Below, in pieces: positions 5,195-63,143 of a stretch of 64,000 bases of DNA. The notes beneath the pieces were generated by a model. It saw only the letters and a program-made list of their open reading frames with translations. It made no database searches and was not told the DNA's origin. A program made the translations under genes and the position numbers. This DNA comes from Candidatus Omnitrophota bacterium (lineage in GTDB: Bacteria > Omnitrophota > Gorgyraeia > Zapsychrales > Zapsychraceae): the NCBI GenBank assembly GCA_023247445.1, contig JAHFGL010000003.1, forward strand, positions 78,128-142,127, written 5' to 3'. Every line of letters starts with the position of its first letter. The stretch's first letter is position 1.

Positions 5195-6538
5195 ATGTCT
5201 TTATTGGGTGAGAAACAAAAAACAATTAAGGAAGAATGTCGTGTCTCGGGTGTTGGTCTACATACTGGGTCGTCGGTAAATGTTGTCTTTAAACCTTCCG
5301 CAGAGAACACGGGAATTAATTTTATCCGTGTTGATCTTCCATCGCGTCCCGTGATTAAGGCGGACCCTGCCCATGTTTTAGTCGAAACGCCTGTACCACG
5401 TTGCACGACCATTAGTTATGATGGGGCAATGATTCATACCGTTGAGCATTTAATGAGTGTTTTGCGTGGTTTGGGAATTACGAATTTATTGATTGAGTTA
5501 GATGGCAATGAGTTGCCTGGCTTAGATGGCAGCGGGGCTGATTATTTAAATTTATTTAAAAAAGCAGGGATTAAAGAACAAGAGGCTCAGGCCCCATTTT
5601 ATAGGATTCAAGAACCAATTGGCGTAGAGTTGAGCGGTTCCTCCATTTATGTTTTTCCCTCGGATGAATTAAAAATTTCGTATTTACTCGATTATCCGCA
5701 TAATATGTTACGGTCACAATATTTTAATATCACGATTGATCCAACAATTTTTGAACGTGAGATTGCTCCCTGTCGAACATTTTGTTTAGAGAGCGAGGCC
5801 AATGAGTTAAAAGCTGGAGGGTTGGGCAAAGGCGCTAATTTTAAGAACACTCTGGTTGTTGGCCCAGGAGGCGTTATCGACAATCAACTCCGCTTCCCTG
5901 ATGAATTTGCCCGTCATAAAATATTGGATTTTATTGGAGATTTGTATCTGCTGGGAATGCCGATTCGTGGACATGTGTTTGCCGTTAAAAGTGGACACGC
6001 TTTAAATCTGCGACTTTTAAAGAAAATTGTTGAGCAAAAAGAGAAATATTCGCGTAAAGGAATCGTGGTTGGATATGATATTGGTGATAAAAAAGAGATC
6101 GATATCAGTGATATCATGAAAATCTTACCGCATCGTTACCCGTTTTTGTTGGTGGATCGAGTCATTGAGATTGAAAAGGGGAAAAAGGGTATAGGGATTA
6201 AAAATGTTACAATTAATGACAGTTATTTTCAGGGGCATTTCCCAACGCGGCCCATTATGCCTGGGGTTTTGATGATCGAAGCGATGGCCCAGACCGGCGG
6301 GGTTGTTGTCTTGACGAATGAAGATCATCGTGGTAAAGTAGCGTTCTTTATGGCCACCGATAATGTGAAATTTCGTAAAGTGGTCACGCCGGGCGATCAA
6401 CTGATGATGGAGGTCGAAGTTGTGAAAGATAGAACTAAGATTGCCCAAGTTCATGCCGTAGGGAAAGTTAATGGTGAAGTTGTGGTTGAGGCCGATATGA
6501 TTTTTTCCTTCACTGATGCTTCTTATTTAGATTTATAA
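5195..6538 (+). CDS. lpxC/fabZ: Bifunctional UDP-3-O-acyl-GlcNAc deacetylase / 3-hydroxyacyl-ACP dehydratase (LpxC-FabZ fusion).
   Basis: 447 aa. The N-terminal ~280 aa carry an LpxC-like fold (GVGLHTG, HTVEHL). The C-terminal ~150 aa are a FabZ hotdog domain (LPHRYPFLLVDRV..., MPGVLMIEAMAQ). Confidence 0.85.
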   Translation: MSLLGEKQKTIKEECRVSGVGLHTGSSVNVVFKPSAENTGINFIRVDLPSRPVIKADPAHVLVETPVPRCTTISYDGAMIHTVEHLMSVLRGLGITNLLIELDGNELPGLDGSGADYLNLFKKAGIKEQEAQAPFYRIQEPIGVELSGSSIYVFPSDELKISYLLDYPHNMLRSQYFNITIDPTIFEREIAPCRTFCLESEANELKAGGLGKGANFKNTLVVGPGGVIDNQLRFPDEFARHKILDFIGDLYLLGMPIRGHVFAVKSGHALNLRLLKKIVEQKEKYSRKGIVVGYDIGDKKEIDISDIMKILPHRYPFLLVDRVIEIEKGKKGIGIKNVTINDSYFQGHFPTRPIMPGVLMIEAMAQTGGVVVLTNEDHRGKVAFFMATDNVKFRKVVTPGDQLMMEVEVVKDRTKIAQVHAVGKVNGEVVVEADMIFSFTDASYLDL

Positions 6539-6582
6539 AAAAGTTATTGTTTATCAATCGTCCTCGTTTAGAATAGGGTTAT

Positions 6583-7368
6583 ATGGAAAATTTAAATATT
6601 CATAAAACTGCTGTTGTTGATCGAGCCGCAAAATTATCTCCGGGCGTCAGCGTCGGCCCATATTCGATTATTGATGGTGGGGTTACAATTGGTGATAATG
6701 TCCGCATTGGGGCCCATTGTGTCATTACTGGACAAACAACCATTGGTCGCAATTGCAAAATTTATACTGGAGCCGTCATTGGCAGTGCCCCGCAAGATAG
6801 GAAATTTTCTGCGGATGACAACGTATTTTTAAATATTGGCGAAAATAATATTATTCGTGAATATGTGACAATGAATCCGGGAACGCTTGAGGGTGGTAGT
6901 AAGACAGTGGTTGGAAACGATAATTTAATTATGGCGTATTCACATGTCGCTCATGATTGTGTAATTGGTAACAACTGCGTGATGGCTAATGCGGCAACGC
7001 TCGCTGGGCATGTGACACTTGAAGATAGCGCGGTTGTTGGGGGATTAAGTGCTGTTCATCAATTTGTTCGCGTAGGTCGTTTATCGATTGTTGGTGGATG
7101 CTCAAAAGTTGTCCAGGATATTCCTCCATTCTCCATGAGTGATGGACATCCAGCCCAAGTGCATGGTTTAAACTTAGTTGGTTTAAGACGAGCCCACTTT
7201 ATGAAGGAAACAATTAAATCTCTTAAACACGCATTTAAAATATTATTTTTCTCCGGCCTTGCTAAAACCCATGCTTTAGAACAAATCGTCAGCGAAATTC
7301 CTTCATCTCCAGAGATTGAGCATCTTGTATTTTTTGCTAAAACTTCTGAACGAGGACTTTGCAGTTAA
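6583..7368 (+). CDS. lpxA: Acyl-ACP--UDP-GlcNAc O-acyltransferase LpxA.
   Basis: 261 aa with hexapeptide repeats and the LpxA C-terminal helical region. Confidence 0.85.
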   Translation: MENLNIHKTAVVDRAAKLSPGVSVGPYSIIDGGVTIGDNVRIGAHCVITGQTTIGRNCKIYTGAVIGSAPQDRKFSADDNVFLNIGENNIIREYVTMNPGTLEGGSKTVVGNDNLIMAYSHVAHDCVIGNNCVMANAATLAGHVTLEDSAVVGGLSAVHQFVRVGRLSIVGGCSKVVQDIPPFSMSDGHPAQVHGLNLVGLRRAHFMKETIKSLKHAFKILFFSGLAKTHALEQIVSEIPSSPEIEHLVFFAKTSERGLCS

Positions 7369-57667: not shown

Positions 57668-58339
57668 TTAATTAGAGCTAACTTTTATTACCACACCGGC
57701 TGCATTAACAGGATCCTTGTGACCAACGACAAGACTAATTTGTCCAGGATTGATGGCCGTAATTTTGCCCTCATCATCAATGCTGATGATTTCTGTGTTG
57801 GCTGGTTTGCCAGGATACAGCACATATTTTGTGCCAAACTTTGTGGAAGTGATGTCCCGTTCCACCCCATCACTGAATGTCCCATAAACGTTTATTTGTC
57901 GAGTATCGCCAACCGTTAAGGAAATAAAATCAGAATCTACCCGAAGAGATATGAGTGGACCCATTGTATTAAGAGAAAGGGGTAAGAGTAGTTCTTGGGA
58001 GTTTGTGTAAGAACCTTCAGGGGTCTTCCCGGTAGCGACTAATTTAATGTTTTCGGTTGCTTGGGATGGTATTTGATATCTGAAGGTGAAGATATTTGTT
58101 CCATTGTTTTTCTGAGTTTTGACAAATTCAGGCCCAACTAAAAGCACTTCAGCGACATGGGTTCCTTGTAATTCGATTTCAACAATTTCACCGGGTGCTA
58201 ACGAGATATTTTCTTGTGGTTTAATAAAAGACAAAGATGGTGTCTCTTGAGTCGTAGCTTCGGATATCTGTTTAGGAATTTGGTGTAATCCCAGTGCAAT
58301 AAAGGTGAAGAAGGTTATGGTAATAATTTTTATGTGCAT
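57668..58339 (-). CDS. Secreted protein with a C-terminal bacterial Ig-like (Big_2-type) domain.
   Basis: 223 aa with a signal peptide. The C-terminal ~80 aa (LTVGDTRQI...ITAINPGQISLVV) resemble a Big_2 domain. Confidence 0.5.
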   Translation of the reverse strand: MHIKIITITFFTFIALGLHQIPKQISEATTQETPSLSFIKPQENISLAPGEIVEIELQGTHVAEVLLVGPEFVKTQKNNGTNIFTFRYQIPSQATENIKLVATGKTPEGSYTNSQELLLPLSLNTMGPLISLRVDSDFISLTVGDTRQINVYGTFSDGVERDITSTKFGTKYVLYPGKPANTEIISIDDEGKITAINPGQISLVVGHKDPVNAAGVVIKVSSN

Positions 58340-58455
58340 AAGATATCCTTTGTAGGAAAGCTAATGCGGCCCCAGCATTTCTAATTAATTTTAATGGTAG
58401 CTGGGACTGCACTTGTTTTCTCTATTATAAAATTTTTAGCTTAAAGGAAAACAAG

Positions 58456-58500
58456 TGCGGAAGGAGAGATTTGAACTCTCATACCTTGCGGCACAGGCTT
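58456..58500 (-). tRNA. 3' half of a split tRNA-Leu(CAG)-like gene (anticodon-loop AA through the acceptor 3' strand plus discriminator A).
   Basis: Minus strand reads AAGCCTG-TGCCGCAAGGTAT-GAGAGTTCAAATCTCTC-CTTCCGC-A. The T-arm and acceptor are nearly identical to the intact tRNA at 58581-58663. No CCA is encoded. Confidence 0.55.
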
Positions 58501-58580
58501 CTGCACTGACTTCTCTAATAAAGATATTTATTGTAGTCAGTACTGCCCCAACTTTTTCTTTATGCTTGGGGAAACTTTAA

Positions 58581-58663
58581 TGCGGAAGGAGAGACTCGAA
58601 CTCTCAAGGCTTGCGCCATACGCTTCTGAGACGTACGCGTATACCAAATTCCGCCACTCCCGC
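58581..58663 (-). tRNA. tRNA-Leu(CAG), intact, type II with a long variable arm.
   Basis: Minus strand reads GCGGGAG-TG-GCGGAATTTGGTATACGC-G-TACGT-CTCAGAA-GCGTA-TGGCGCAAGCCTT-GAGAGTTCGAGTCTCTC-CTTCCGC-A. The acceptor pairs 7/7 (one G-U). No CCA is encoded. Confidence 0.8.
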
Positions 58664-58740
58664 GAAAAATATGCTTTCAAAAATATTTAGAAAAGTCAGT
58701 GCTGTACCAACTACCATAAATTTATTAAGGAAAGTTGGTG

Positions 58741-58777
58741 CTGAGACCTGCGTGTCTACCAATTTCACCACTTCCGC
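58741..58777 (-). tRNA. 5' half of a split tRNA-Leu(CAG)-like gene (acceptor 5' strand through anticodon CAG).
   Basis: Minus strand reads GCGGAAG-TG-GTGAAATTGGTAGACAC-G-CAGGT-CTCAG. It pairs with the 3' half at 58456-58500 (acceptor 7/7; anticodon stem CAGGT/GCCTG 5/5 with one G-U). Confidence 0.55.
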
Positions 58778-58943
58778 TCAACCACAAATTTTTGGAAAAG
58801 AGCGGAAGAGTCCTCCGAGCGAGAGCGAAGGAGGGCACTTCCGCAATGATTTCCGCCCAGTATACCCAGAATCAAATAGTCTGTCAATTGATCCACAATG
58901 GAAACGTTTTCAAAGAAAATGGTTTTACCACTTGTGAAATTCT

Positions 58944-58953
58944 GGGGGGGGGG
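58944..58953. repeat. Homopolymeric G10 tract.
   Basis: GGGGGGGGGG lying ~57 bp upstream of the 59010 secreted-protein gene. Confidence 0.9.
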
Positions 58954-59009
58954 TACACTTATATTAAAGTAATTTATAAAATAAATTTTAACAATTTTAT
59001 AAAGGAGAG

Positions 59010-60237: not shown

Positions 60238-60665
60238 GGGGGTGATCGGTCTCGACTTGAGTTAGCGATGTATAGGTGGCATGCCGAGGAAGCCTAGTAG
60301 GCCTCGTTAATAATCTGGGCAAAAACTAAACGCAGAAAAAACAGCGTTATCGACCTTCGATGCTGAACTTGCATTTGCTACGTCAGTAGCTCCTGTCAAG
60401 AACACAGTGTCTGTTGGTCAATTAGTCTAAGCTCTCGTAGCTTAGCCCTCTTACCAGTCTCGTCTGCGGATTGGAGTTAGGGGACCCTAGCAGGCTCGGG
60501 TGTAAATTCCGTTTCCTGGTTTACATCGACACTTTAAGGAATCTAGTCTTAATTGATCCTGTCTAGCGGAGGGATTAAGATGACGCTTGAAAAGATAGAC
60601 TACGCATGTAGAGGCTTATATAACGAAACCCAAGGACCCGGGTTCGATTCCCGGCACCTCCACCA
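60238..60665 (+). ncRNA. ssrA: tmRNA (SsrA).
   Basis: The 5' end GGGGGUGAUCGGUCUCGAC pairs with the 3' end CACCUCC-ACCA. The terminal tRNA-like domain is GGACCCGGGTTCGATTCCCGGCACCTCCACCA. It lies immediately downstream of smpB. The internal frame from GCA (60332) runs to TAA at 60428 (AEKTALSTFDAELAFA...). Confidence 0.85.
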
Positions 60666-60667
60666 TT

Positions 60668-60736
60668 TCTTTCCACAAGACAAAAAACCTCTGTACCCGA
60701 AAGGGCGGAGGTTTTTTGTTGTCTAGGGAAAGAAAT
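60668..60736. terminator. Nested long hairpin / bidirectional terminator after ssrA.
   Basis: AAAAAACCTC...GAGGTTTTTT inner stem flanked by TTTCTTTCCACAAGAC / GTCTAGGGAAAGAAA outer arms. Further hairpins follow at ~60740-60775 and ~60845-60895. Confidence 0.65.
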
Positions 60737-61052
60737 GGTGGCCCCAGCAACGCTCCTGCGTTGCCGGGGCCATGTCTGCTCCTCAAGACTGGCCAGAAAA
60801 TAAATTTTCTGTCTAGTCTTTTCGTCGCATCCATGTCGGTGCCTGGGCAACAAAGATTTTCGGTATAAAATTAAGGAATCTTTGTTGGCCCGGCACCATT
60901 CTAAAAACAACCAAAATGCAATTAATTCAAAATAAGAGCAGCAAGTATTTAAATAAAACTACTTGCTGTTTTATTTTTTGTGTTAAATTTAATCAGTGTC
61001 CAAACGGTGTCAGCCAAATTATTATTTGTTATAGTAGAGGAATCTTATAAAT

Positions 61053-62588: not shown

Positions 62589-62900
62589 TGTAATTCTCCT
62601 CACATTGCCTTCCCAAAAACATATGCTATACTTTCAGCAGAAACAGAAGCGTTAGCCGATCTTTAAAAATTTATCTTAGTAAACTATTCGAAAGAGTAGG
62701 ACACAAAGCCGTGAGCCTAAAGTCCTTTTGGACTATGGTTGTCTGGTTGCCATTGCTGATCTAATTAGATCGTAGATACAGTGATGATTGCCTCAAGGAA
62801 GATCTAAAGTCGTAAAGAATTGAGGCTGCGTTTAGTCCAACGCAAAAGGCTTCGTCTTTGTCCCTATCCTTCGTGCCTTAATCATTTAGGAGGGATAAAG

Positions 62901-63143
62901 ATGAAAATAATCCTTTCAGCACTTCTTCTATTAAGTATCAGTACCTTAAGTTACGCTGGTGTCAGCCAAACCCAAAGTTATCGAGTTTCGCTTACAATTC
63001 CTGCCGTTGTTGGATTGAATGTGGGTGTTGAGCCTTCCGCAAATTTAGGAACTTCCAAAGATTTAAAGAATCAGGAAATCATTAAAGAAAGAATTGTCCG
63101 CAACAATACCCCAATCATCCTGGAGACGATTGTCCTGAAGTAG
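62901..63143 (+). CDS. Hypothetical small secreted protein.
   Basis: 81 aa from ATG 62901 (MKIILSALLLLSISTLSYAG...) with a signal peptide, preceded by AGGAGGG. Confidence 0.4.
   Translation: MKIILSALLLLSISTLSYAGVSQTQSYRVSLTIPAVVGLNVGVEPSANLGTSKDLKNQEIIKERIVRNNTPIILETIVLK

Follow-up and report, generated by a model that had tools for sequence, protein, structure and literature searches.

A complete tRNA-Leu(CAG) gene nested in the anticodon loop of a split tRNA-Leu(CAG) gene at a bacterial aceE-smpB locus

tRNA genes are classic landing sites for mobile DNA, and how tRNA genes came to be split or to contain introns is a long-standing question. CIMEs and IS200/IS605-type elements (PATEs, REPs) are small, gene-poor and hairpin-rich, are bounded by short motifs and accrete in arrays by tRNA genes. 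Prophages, ICEs and genomic islands insert into tRNA genes and restore them (Islander, PMC4383910; fragment survey, doi 10.1101/2022.07.05.498093). In the split and permuted tRNA genes of Archaea and algae, such as the split tRNAs of Nanoarchaeum equitans, the halves are encoded as separate genes and are joined by a bulge-helix-bulge (BHB) endonuclease and a ligase (PMC4390854, PMC4033280).

The window analysed here, a stretch of 64,000 nt, contains a tRNA-Leu(CAG) gene split around an insert, X, that carries a complete tRNA-Leu(CAG) of its own. Similarly to the targets of tRNA-directed integrative elements, which are often split in the anticodon loop at the DNA level, the gene is interrupted in that loop, the incoming tRNA would be a functional replacement, and displaced fragments lie at the borders; displaced tRNA fragments are also abundant at this locus in relatives. 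Compared with those elements, complementary halves, a repeat of 3 nt, a separate complete tRNA and a length of 240 bp were found here, and no recombinase gene. With the CIMEs and IS200/IS605-type elements the insert shares small, hairpin-rich DNA, short bounding motifs and seamless empty sites; it differs from them in having neither dispersed copies (in the 64-kb window) nor a partner enzyme, and its hairpins give the impression of functional RNA trailers, paired with the CCA end, a design that recurs after the tmRNA gene. Group I introns of bacterial tRNA-Leu genes resemble the insert in their anticodon-loop site, their size (~200-250 nt) and their sporadic occurrence at one identical site, but here no catalytic core, P1 or internal guide pairing was detectable, a bona fide tRNA makes up one third of the insert, and trailer hairpins of the kind that also follow stand-alone tRNAs make up the remainder. 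As in the archaeal and algal split tRNAs, the break lies at the anticodon loop, and flanking complementarity (here a 16-bp helix) could bring the halves together; in contrast to them, the halves stand in cis, in a bacterium, with no BHB and with a redundant complete tRNA between them.

Architecture of the locus

The features are collected in Table 1. Loci of relatives are designated by L and a number.

Table 1. Features of the composite tRNA-Leu locus, in order of transcription.
Feature	Positions	Strand	Description
Promoter	58859..58887	-	sigma-70-type, TTGACA-17-TATACT, for the whole composite locus; 11/12 consensus positions
Leader hairpin ('minihelix')	58802..58844	-	GCGGAAGTG-CCCTCC..GGAGGAC-TCTTCCGC; inverted repeat I10, direct repeat D6
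Outer tRNA-Leu(CAG), 5' half	58741..58777	-	GCGGAAGTGGTGAAATTGGTAGACACGCAGGTCTCAG (37 nt); acceptor 5' strand, D arm, anticodon-stem 5' strand, CUCAG
Insert X	58501..58740	-	240 nt, trinucleotide CAG on either side; homologous to the L091 insert, same two junctions
Hairpin 1	58705..58740	-	CACCA (tRNA 3' terminus) and trailer hairpin CAACTTTCC..GGTAGTTG; aligns with stand-alone L137
Long-range helix (16 bp) around the inner tRNA, 5' arm	58687..58702	-	GCACTGACTTTTCTAA; inverted repeat I4; MFE fold
Inner tRNA-Leu(CAG), complete, 'inner type'	58581..58663	-	D arm GGCGGAATTTGGTATACGCG, anticodon stem TACGT/GCGTA; ARAGORN and Rfam
Hairpin 2, H_b type	58546..58571	-	CCCCAAGC..GTTGGGG; read from sequence; resembles hairpins downstream of stand-alone tRNAs
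Trailer-type hairpin	58503..58545	-	CAGTACTGACTACAAT..TTAGAGAAGTCAGTGC; includes long-range helix 3' arm (58518-58503); repeats I4, I16, D3
Outer tRNA-Leu(CAG), 3' half	58456..58500	-	AAGCCTGTGCCGCAAGGTATGAGAGTTCAAATCTCTCCTTCCGCA (45 nt); A37-A38, anticodon-stem 3' strand, variable arm, T arm, acceptor 3' strand, A73
Trailer hairpin of the outer tRNA	58409..58458	-	GCACTTGTTTTCC..GAAAACAAGTGC, then CAG; inverted repeat I13, 12/12 complementary
H_b' hairpin	58370..58406	-	TCCCAGC..GCTGGGG, then CCGCA; read from sequence

The outer 5' and 3' halves matched nhmmer positions 1-41 and 34-83, respectively. The split sits between the anticodon CAG and A37, and the joined junction would read ..GGUCUCAG followed by AAGCCUGUG.. 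(also given as ..GGUCUCAG followed by AAGCCUG..), within an outer-type anticodon stem of CAGGU/GCCUG. The earlier note, written from the letters of the window, had given the coordinates of both halves and their 240-nt spacing exactly, and the CAG that it described was seen ahead of each junction. Its proposal that the halves fold into a type-II tRNA-Leu(CAG) if joined was borne out by ARAGORN, which called the joined 82-mer as tRNA-Leu(CAG) with a normal cloverleaf; the same program, which the earlier note had named for this purpose, did not call the outer gene in situ when introns were permitted (-i0,400) and reported the inner gene alone. The joined gene was identical at 82/82 positions to the uninterrupted tRNA of L002 at the same locus, the 5' half being L002 tRNA positions 1-37 and the 3' half the corresponding L002 part. 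The outer halves showed almost no pseudogene decay, which is surprising for relics.

The inner tRNA was called by ARAGORN and scored 51.3 bits with the Rfam tRNA model, in agreement with the earlier note, which had placed a complete, separately folded tRNA-Leu(CAG) in the spacer. It was 81-83% similar to the outer halves. The 240-bp insert held no plausible ORF, and its spacers correspond to trailer hairpins normally found after inner-type tRNAs. At the left junction the anticodon CAG is joined to a tRNA 3' end, CACCA, with its trailer: CAG followed by CACCAACTTTCC.. aligned with CCG-CACCAACTTTCC.. (tRNA 3' end and trailer) of L137, and hairpin 1 aligned with the 3' end and trailer of the same tRNA (CCGCACCAACTTTCC..GGAGAAAGTTGGTG). 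Between the window and the insert of L091, hairpin 1 showed one compensatory pair (C-G to U-A). The right end of the insert, ..GAAGTCAGTGCAG, aligned with the end of the L121 trailer. A 16-nt inverted repeat (58687-58702 / 58503-58518, 94% complementary) brackets the inner tRNA; the 5' arm of this helix was homologous to the trailer hairpin arm CACTGACTTTCC of L121, and the block TTGGGGCAGTACTGACTACAAT, which overlaps the 3' arm, was 100% conserved in L091.

Hairpin 2 resembles the TCCCxCC..GGxGGGG hairpins that lie 3' of stand-alone tRNAs, and its 5' arm is absent in L091. Both of the 'hairpin plus GCACTGACT' modules of the earlier note exist, although the second reads GTACTGACT and not GCACTGACT. 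The motif GYACTGACT occurred three times in 64 kb (0.3 expected), every time at this locus, and the direct repeats D1, D3 and D5 represent duplicated units. Nine aligned hairpin modules had CAC..GTG termini and a flanking C(A/C)G, a pattern that RNA trailers starting at tRNA positions 72-74 would also explain. The ends of X, if joined, would form the palindrome GTGC-A-GCAC. The tmRNA gene is followed by the same trailer design.

The same TTGACA..TATACT was present ahead of the tRNA in L002, L168, L091 and most relatives, and no second promoter-like site was found upstream of the inner tRNA. With a single promoter, the whole locus is therefore expected as one precursor transcript. The first 9 nt of the leader (58844-58836) copy the tRNA 5' end and stand at the position of the tRNA start in L002; set against L002, the leader has the appearance of 67 nt inserted between copies of the 9-nt repeat GCGGAAGTG. 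Its homologue in L091 showed a compensatory G..C to A..T change (ACGGAAG..CTTCCGT). Downstream, the outer trailer hairpin begins within the tRNA 3' end and groups with the trailers of L172, L004 and L121 as one family. The H_b' modules have homologues in L121, L130 and L137, and the equivalent pair in L091 lies upstream of the outer 5' half.

The locus in relatives and its rates of change

The locus is the aceE-smpB tRNA-Leu locus of a clade that is probably Omnitrophota-related. The comparison with relatives, which the earlier note had put forward, revealed both intact and nested forms. Uninterrupted orthologues were found in L002, which has the same promoter and adjoins smpB, and in L168; the outer type is also found as a stand-alone gene in L101, in L103 and in L077, an Omnitrophota MAG. 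By sequence comparison the outer gene is ancestral and the insert derived, because the L002 gene is both uninterrupted and identical at 82/82 positions, and L168 is uninterrupted as well. The inner type is the stand-alone gene adjoining smpB in L092, L121, L130, L137, L156 and ~25 further loci. L091, of a different lineage, showed a homologous nested structure with identical junctions (CTCAG followed by CACCA, and GTGCAG followed by AAGCC). An independent nested case was present in L131, where a 174-nt insert with its own tRNA interrupts D-loop position 20/21; the joined halves were called tRNA-Leu(CAG) by ARAGORN, and the insert ends and target site differ from those of the window. Leftover 5' or 3' tRNA fragments were observed in L003, L004, L094, L100, L107, L113, L129, L130, L164, L170 and L173, and the promoter and tRNA unit flips its orientation among close relatives. 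The earlier note had suggested a rearrangement hotspot, and the second nested case in L131, the fragments in about ten lineages and the changing orientation agree with it.

By SmpB identity, L002 and L168 are nearer to the window than L091 is, so that the nested window and L091 are not mutual closest relatives. The locus is a mosaic: the promoter and outer halves of the window resemble L002 and L168, and X resembles the X of L091. The aceE-smpB interval of L091, L168 and L004 held the tRNA unit alone. Homologues of ORF223 adjoin other tRNAs, and their synteny is uninformative for this locus. A GTDB scan with SmpB gave distant relatives only (at most 61% identity), and 0 matches came from scanning metagenomes for the outer 5' half with a pyrimidine directly after it.

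Between the window and L091, substitutions were found at 2/82 aligned positions of the inner tRNA (2.4%), 8/81 of the outer halves (9.9%) and 26/135 of the spacers (19.3%). The intermediate rate of the outer halves did not differ significantly from the others (p=0.08 and 0.06; outer versus spacers p=0.08), and selection on the outer halves was not accepted as shown by this rate. Covariation power is low with two sequences, the window and L091. Four-fold sites between them are saturated (33% identity), yet the insert spacers are ~81% identical. The L091 outer gene showed 9 changes compared with the window, mostly structure-preserving, and retained its variable-arm pairs; its T-stem A-U to G-C change is also present in the functional tRNA of L077, and a single pair, A7.C66, is broken. 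The identity of the window outer gene with a functional orthologue and the mostly structure-preserving changes of L091 speak against reading the outer halves as relics. Taken together, the undecayed outer halves, the spacers that are similar despite saturated sites and the non-sister nested lineages demand either a recent horizontal spread of the insert or selection on the outer halves.

Insertion, intron and other explanations

The reading that we hold to be probable, with some reserve, is a nested gene at the DNA level, in which tRNA cassettes insert recurrently, the inner tRNA works and the outer halves are relics. Gene-within-gene arrangements arise repeatedly at this locus, as the relatives show, and are most likely due to DNA insertion rather than to a self-splicing intron. 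In the original outer gene, a cassette of 240 bp came to lie between CAG and A37; it is composed of CACCA, the terminal five nucleotides of a tRNA, with a trailer hairpin, a spacer, a complete tRNA-Leu(CAG) of sister-clade type and two further trailer-type hairpins. We infer the functions of the inner and outer genes from their sequences: the inner tRNA would be released by normal 5' (RNase P) and 3' processing and be the working gene, and the outer halves, although still able to pair as a cloverleaf that clamps the insert, would not be rejoined and would be relics. The founding insertion would have been an uncommon recombination event, illegitimate or templated, at the microhomology CAG; the analysis turned up neither an enzyme nor a mechanism for it. 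Homologous recombination, for which the conserved outer halves would serve as arms, or precise loss could account for the occurrence of the insert in some relatives and not in others. With such recurrent turnover at the aceE-smpB locus, new tRNA cassettes would land inside the resident gene, and later recombination between partly repeated tRNA segments would leave only 5' fragments upstream or 3' fragments downstream.

An integration event had been one option of the earlier note, and it is the best-supported reading by virtue of the empty orthologues L002 and L168 and the sister-clade-type inner tRNA; the integrase, the dispersed copies and the classical signature were absent. Like an integrative element, the insert has a tRNA gene as its target and carries a tRNA that scores as a normal tRNA-Leu(CAG), and the incoming inner tRNA would preserve function. 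The signature of such elements, a complete tRNA and a displaced partial one that share a crossover repeat, was not present at the locus, where two complementary halves were found and only CAG is repeated. Two classical routes were rejected. If a 5'-type and a 3'-type element had integrated in two steps, the intermediate would be a hybrid tRNA whose anticodon stem is mismatched; moreover, the inner tRNA is coherent in type across its two parts. A circle integrated by a single homologous crossover would leave two hybrid tRNAs and not a nested one.

A site-specific mobile mini-cassette is unlikely. X would then be a non-autonomous unit (CIME or IS200/IS605-like), moved by a recombinase or transposase encoded elsewhere and directed to C(A/C)G next to a stem, normally at the tRNA 3' end between CCG and CAC and here at the anticodon CAG; its own tRNA would make the insertion harmless, and it would have entered the window and L091 lineages independently. 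The same junctions in two non-sister lineages, the L002/L168-like promoter and outer halves around an L091-like X, and an X far more alike between genomes than neutral sites are consistent with such movement, as are the C(A/C)G bounds and CAC..GTG termini of all hairpin modules, the palindrome of the joined X ends and the precise 'empty sites' of L002 and L168. However, no recombinase, transposase or integrase gene was found at or near the locus in any relative. Neither did other copies appear: searching the 64-kb window for the motif, and by blastn with the locus as query, returned the locus itself only, blastn against phage and plasmid collections gave a weak tRNA-Leu match only, and IMG/VR pattern scans gave chance matches without tRNAs or none, together with ordinary integrase-adjacent tRNA-Leu genes of high-GC organisms. 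The trailer design shared with tmRNA suggests functional RNA trailers rather than selfish DNA, the L131 case has other ends and another target site, and the same-site distribution needs no enzyme if the outer halves recombine homologously.

An intervening sequence at the RNA level, i.e., a new kind of bacterial tRNA intron, appears improbable. A single transcript would give rise to both tRNAs: the halves would be held together by the 16-bp helix and the outer stems, RNase P and 3' enzymes would cut out the embedded tRNA, and the rest would be removed and the outer halves ligated. The insert lies in the anticodon loop at an identical site in the window and L091 and is missing in L002 and L168, a sporadic distribution among close relatives that is typical of introns, including those of group I. 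The outer 'exons' are undecayed with structure-preserving differences, the 322-nt unit folds into nested cloverleaves (MFE -103 kcal/mol, z-score -4.5), hairpin 1 has its compensatory pair, the junction-proximal blocks are conserved, and the layout is like the complementary leader and trailer of archaeal split tRNAs. The earlier note had called the junction compatible with a group-I-like intron; U33 and the terminal G of the insert are indeed available for a U(-1)/G(omega) reading, but with neither an Rfam match nor a guide such an intron is unsupported.

The Infernal comparison that the earlier note had pointed to turned out negative: Rfam 15 cmscan of 58200-59000 with permissive filters detected no intron or ribozyme family at E<=10, neither Intron_gpI nor group II domain V/VI, hammerhead, twister, pistol, hatchet or HDV. 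The group I model works in this clade, because the same library detected a group I intron (36 bits) in the relative locus L003. The whole window at the gathering threshold and 58200-59000 at E<=10 gave tRNA, tmRNA and a c-di-GMP riboswitch only, and in 15 related loci Rfam found leaders and inserts without a known family. By inspection, the insert contained no GGACC-like or wobble-variant partner for the 5' exon GGUCU (P1/internal guide), a manual search for the hammerhead core CUGANGA was negative, and no bulge-helix-bulge motif was seen in the sequence or fold. In the MFE and consensus folds, the junctions fell within a three-way junction and a 4x4 internal loop, and the 5' junction is itself part of the one 4-bp helix present (GCAC/GUGC).

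Further points weigh against RNA-level removal. To our knowledge, bacteria have no tRNA splicing endonuclease, and RNase P and RNase Z alone would leave tails of ~77 nt and ~80 nt that need exact trimming. The insert consists of ordinary trailer hairpins with no dedicated core, the outer tRNA is redundant with the inner tRNA, and two sequences offer little covariation power. A related idea, that the embedded tRNA serves as a processing handle and a bacterial RNA repair or ligation system rejoins the outer halves, so that one promoter yields two tRNA-Leu(CAG) species, seems slightly harder still to credit.

Decay of a tandem array is very doubtful. Three tRNA-Leu genes (outer, inner, outer) with their trailers would have suffered two separate deletions, of positions 38-71 of the first copy and of the leader and positions 1-37 of the third. 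The left junction does look like an internal deletion from CAG (34-36) to CCG (69-71), giving A5-CACCA-trailer, at the right junction position 37 directly follows a trailer ending in GTGCAG, C(A/C)G microhomologies are present at both, and the direct repeats D1, D3 and D5 indicate duplicated units. However, the two deletions would have to leave exactly complementary halves (37 + 45 = 82 nt, L002-identical), L131 would require this coincidence a second time, at 20/21, and no relative among ~90 loci had three tandem tRNA-Leu copies.

An assembly chimera of tandem or allelic tRNA-Leu genes, which the earlier note had named as a way in which its reading could fail, can practically be set aside: tRNA-derived repeats could confuse short-read assemblers, and contig L001, assembled from another sample, ends precisely where the tRNA 3' end lies, but L001 carries the same nested arrangement in an independent assembly (4503/4504 identical), the related lineage L091, which comes from a different project, shows the structure in a diverged form (83% identity), and the repeats are just 81-83% identical over 26-48 nt, far below k=141.

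Meaning of the nested gene

Nested tRNA genes are missed or mis-annotated by standard finders, as ARAGORN gave the inner gene only. At one locus of one bacterial clade, a series of stages was observed: intact forms, gene-in-gene forms in the anticodon loop and the D-loop, and decayed forms with terminal fragments. If the outer halves are still used, the insert would represent a new kind of bacterial intron; such an RNA-level class, if true, would be without precedent among bacterial tRNA introns in belonging to neither group I nor group II, and it would illustrate in a present-day organism how anticodon-loop insertions can give rise to tRNA genes that are split or contain introns. If the outer halves are relics, the locus would be a compact natural record of tRNA replacement by horizontally acquired alleles with no loss of function, and it would also show how such fragments of tRNA genes can form in the absence of large islands.

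Layout and composition of the nested locus

The earlier note described a complete tRNA-Leu(CAG) nested in a second, split tRNA-Leu(CAG), and this was confirmed by the ARAGORN and Rfam calls and by the same arrangement in L001, an independent assembly of another sample. The nested unit spans 58456-58777 on the minus strand, with the 5' half, insert, and 3' half in order. ARAGORN called the joined outer halves as tRNA-Leu(CAG) with a regular type-II cloverleaf. CAG precedes both insert junctions, and the inner tRNA is bracketed by a 16-nt inverted repeat (58687-58702 / 58503-58518, 94% complementary). The 64-kb window has three copies of GYACTGACT versus 0.3 expected, all of them at the nested locus.

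Features of the nested tRNA-Leu(CAG) locus
Feature	Position and length	Strand	Basis
Outer 5' half	58777-58741, 37 nt, ends CUCAG	minus	sequence reading
Insert	58740-58501, 240 nt	minus	between outer halves
Outer 3' half	58500-58456, 45 nt, starts AAGCC	minus	sequence reading
Inner complete tRNA-Leu(CAG)	58663-58581	minus	ARAGORN; Rfam tRNA 51.3 bits

By its composition, the insert is not a dedicated element. The clade's stand-alone tRNA-Leu genes carry a trailer hairpin beginning within the tRNA 3' end, of the form (CCG)CAC-N4-5-TTTCC..GGAAA-N'4-5-GTG and then (C/A)AG, whose outer-stem positions co-vary (CAAC/GTTG, TGAC/GTCA, TTGT/ACAA, CAGT/ACTG); a second hairpin, TCCCxCC..GGxGGGG, and CCGCAC follow. 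The insert starts as such a trailer unit, CAG followed by CACCAACTTTCC..GGTAGTTGGTA-CAG aligning with CCG-CACCAACTTTCC..GGAGAAAGTTGGTG of the sister-clade locus L137, and also ends as one (..GAGAAGTCAGTG-CAG aligns with ..GAGGAAGTCAGTA-CAG of L121). From these alignments, the left junction is the anticodon CAG joined to what are normally tRNA positions 72-76 plus trailer, and the right junction is a trailer end joined to position 37. After the terminal CCACCA of the window tmRNA comes a trailer, TTTCTTTCC..(terminator)..GGGAAAGAAATGGTGG, which pairs back onto CCACCA (60660-60775, plus), and then the hairpin CCCCAGCAACG..CGTTGCCGGGG, the same two-hairpin design as 3' of the tRNA-Leu genes. Given this analogous pairing, the hairpins are most simply RNA trailers, and the common design suggests that stable RNAs across the clade share a signal for 3'-end processing or termination.

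A single strong promoter (58887-58859) serves the nested locus and none was found within the insert, so on this reading the inner tRNA must come from a long precursor. The precursor was predicted to fold into nested cloverleaves (MFE −103 kcal/mol, z = −4.5): besides the acceptor, D, anticodon, and T arms of the outer tRNA, the fold contains the insert's first hairpin, the 16-bp helix, the inner cloverleaf, and, at the anticodon loop, a three-way junction. The group-I-like intron offered earlier was not supported: the Rfam search of 58200-59000 brought up neither a group I or group II intron nor a small-ribozyme family at E<=10, and inspection of the insert revealed no internal guide sequence to pair with the 5' exon. 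The same library picks up a group I intron in the relative locus L003. Inspection revealed no hammerhead core at the nested locus, and inspection and predicted folds no bulge-helix-bulge motif.

The L003 match (6061-6725, plus; 36.4 bits, E 1.2e-5, sub-threshold) abuts the 3' end of that relative's tmRNA gene (5704-6074). This match probably marks a T-loop group I intron of ssrA such as Williams reportedly described.

Resident gene and related loci

The aceE / smpB-ssrA interval holds tRNA-Leu(CAG) in ~50 related metagenomic loci, with the same synteny in two Omnitrophota MAGs and one MAG labelled Planctomycetales; on this synteny the window's organism is probably related to Omnitrophota. In L002 (SmpB 79% identical to the window's) the tRNA is uninterrupted behind the same TTGACA-17-TATACT promoter and identical to the joined outer halves at 82/82 positions; in L168 (SmpB 75% identical) it is likewise uninterrupted. 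By comparison with these relatives, the outer gene is the resident orthologue and the 240 bp were inserted later. Inner and outer tRNA differ at ~16 positions, among them compensatory changes in the D and anticodon stems, and the inner type is the one that ordinarily stands alone at this locus across a large sister clade (L092, L121, L130, L137, L156, and many more). With these observations, the proposed insertion bringing its own tRNA is supported in modified form.

A composite homologous to the window's is present in L091 (SmpB 71-72%), where it lies on the opposite strand relative to smpB. The two composites share both junctions and are 82.7% identical over 324 nt; the joined outer halves of L091 were also called tRNA-Leu(CAG). 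L131 is an independent nested case, in which outer positions 1-20 (GCTGGAG..GGC) are separated from outer positions 21-83 by an insert of 174 nt with a GCCGAAG-type tRNA inside it. The joined halves of L131 were called tRNA-Leu(CAG), and in its relative L129 the GCTGGAG-type gene is uninterrupted. Shorter tRNA remnants turn up often: pieces of the 5' end, 9-21 nt long, sit between promoter and tRNA in L003, L004, L100, L107, L113, L129, L130, L131, L164, L173, the window, and L091, while L094 and L170 have 3' fragments downstream of the tRNA. The independent case and these fragments support, again with modification, the idea of a rearrangement hotspot.

The promoter and tRNA-Leu unit occurs in either orientation between aceE and smpB (L002 versus L168, L091, L003, L092, L137), flipping even in close relatives (L002 minus, L168 plus, SmpB 82% identical), implying that small inversions or replacements of the cassette are frequent.

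Leader and neighbouring genes

A ~105-nt conserved leader runs from promoter to tRNA-Leu(CAG) (L100:860-985, L107:2249-2383, L113, L130) and is shortened in the window (58778-58852). Within it, a stretch of 10-20 nt repeats the 5' end of the adjoining tRNA and varies with that tRNA's sequence from lineage to lineage. The leader also has two hairpins whose alternative pairings (GTTTAGC/GCTAAAC/ATTTAGC) exclude one another, and GCGAAGTAGA directly before the tRNA. It matched no Rfam family; it could have a regulatory role or be a footprint that earlier insertions left behind. In a leader hairpin ("minihelix"; window 58802-58844, L091:418-466, L164 leader) the 5' arm is the tRNA 5' end, and the acceptor 3' strand forms the end of the 3' arm; the hairpin's stem base shows a compensatory G..C to A..T change between window and L091.

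L091, L168, and L004 lack ORF223 (57668-58339, minus), which in the window lies directly downstream of the tRNA locus. Homologues of ORF223 (L174, L175; 48-55% identity) lie directly downstream of tRNA-Ile(TAT) and tRNA-Arg(TCG), and the L001 contig starts exactly at the tRNA 3' end (58456); ORF223 may be a small tRNA-associated island. An 80-aa GIY-YIG domain ORF lies directly downstream of the tmRNA gene in L168 (1909-2151). The window tmRNA (60238-60665, plus; 169 bits) has an unusually long ARAGORN-predicted tag peptide (AEKTALSTFDAELAFATSVAPVKNTVSVGQLV*), which may be a wrong prediction or an atypical tag in the clade. A c-di-GMP-I riboswitch (62668-62754, plus; 71.5 bits) precedes a small secreted-protein-like ORF (62820-63143). 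Since tyrosine-integrase-like ORFs directly adjoin tRNA-Leu(CAG) with the window locus's anticodon arm in two IMG/VR contigs from high-GC organisms (L176:104-1318, L177:4196-5512), such a gene is elsewhere a classical integration target.

State of the outer halves and origin of the insert

Between window and L091, the inner tRNA showed 2 substitutions in 82 aligned positions, the outer halves 8/81, and the spacers 26/135. The divergence of the outer halves is intermediate (p=0.08 against spacers, p=0.06 against the inner tRNA), and in sequence they look undecayed. The window outer gene has the sequence of the L002 gene, taken as functional. The L091 outer differences mostly keep structure or match natural variants; its T stem GAGGG/CCCTC is also present in a tRNA of the Omnitrophota MAG L077, taken as functional, and the only broken pair is A7.C66. 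The smpB four-fold sites of window and L091 are saturated (33% identity), whereas the insert spacers are ~81% identical. By SmpB identity, L002 and L168 are nearer to the window than L091. The locus is a mosaic: promoter-proximal sequence and outer halves resemble those of L002/L168, and the insert that of L091.

We lean towards a DNA-level nested insertion with the inner tRNA as the working gene. A cassette with a tRNA would land in a resident tRNA gene, and recombination of partly repeated 3' (or 5') tRNA segments would delete one flank, leaving a 5' (or 3') fragment; nested forms would survive where inner and outer types are too diverged to recombine (81-83% in the window). Cassette landing plus flank loss would be a simple model uniting the nested and fragment patterns. 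A tRNA gene nested in a same-isoacceptor tRNA gene was not found described in the searchable literature; the known phenomena that come nearest are group I introns of tRNA genes (doi 10.1101/2020.01.27.920355) and integrative elements that target tRNA genes and leave displaced fragments (PMC4383910; doi 10.1101/2022.07.05.498093).

A mini-cassette moved by a site-specific mobilising enzyme would also fit the substitution, SmpB, and mosaic data, and we regard it as unlikely. Splicing of a novel RNA-level intron would fit the same data and seems quite improbable, and a tandem array with two deletions is more doubtful still. An assembly artefact has a negligible chance, as L001 is 4503/4504 identical, so a chimera is excluded for practical purposes.

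In the favoured nested insertion, the insert, once formed, would be gained and lost among related lineages via homologous recombination through the conserved outer halves. This is the simplest way to reconcile conservation with the mosaic pattern, and it would mean that each host's halves were functional until recently.
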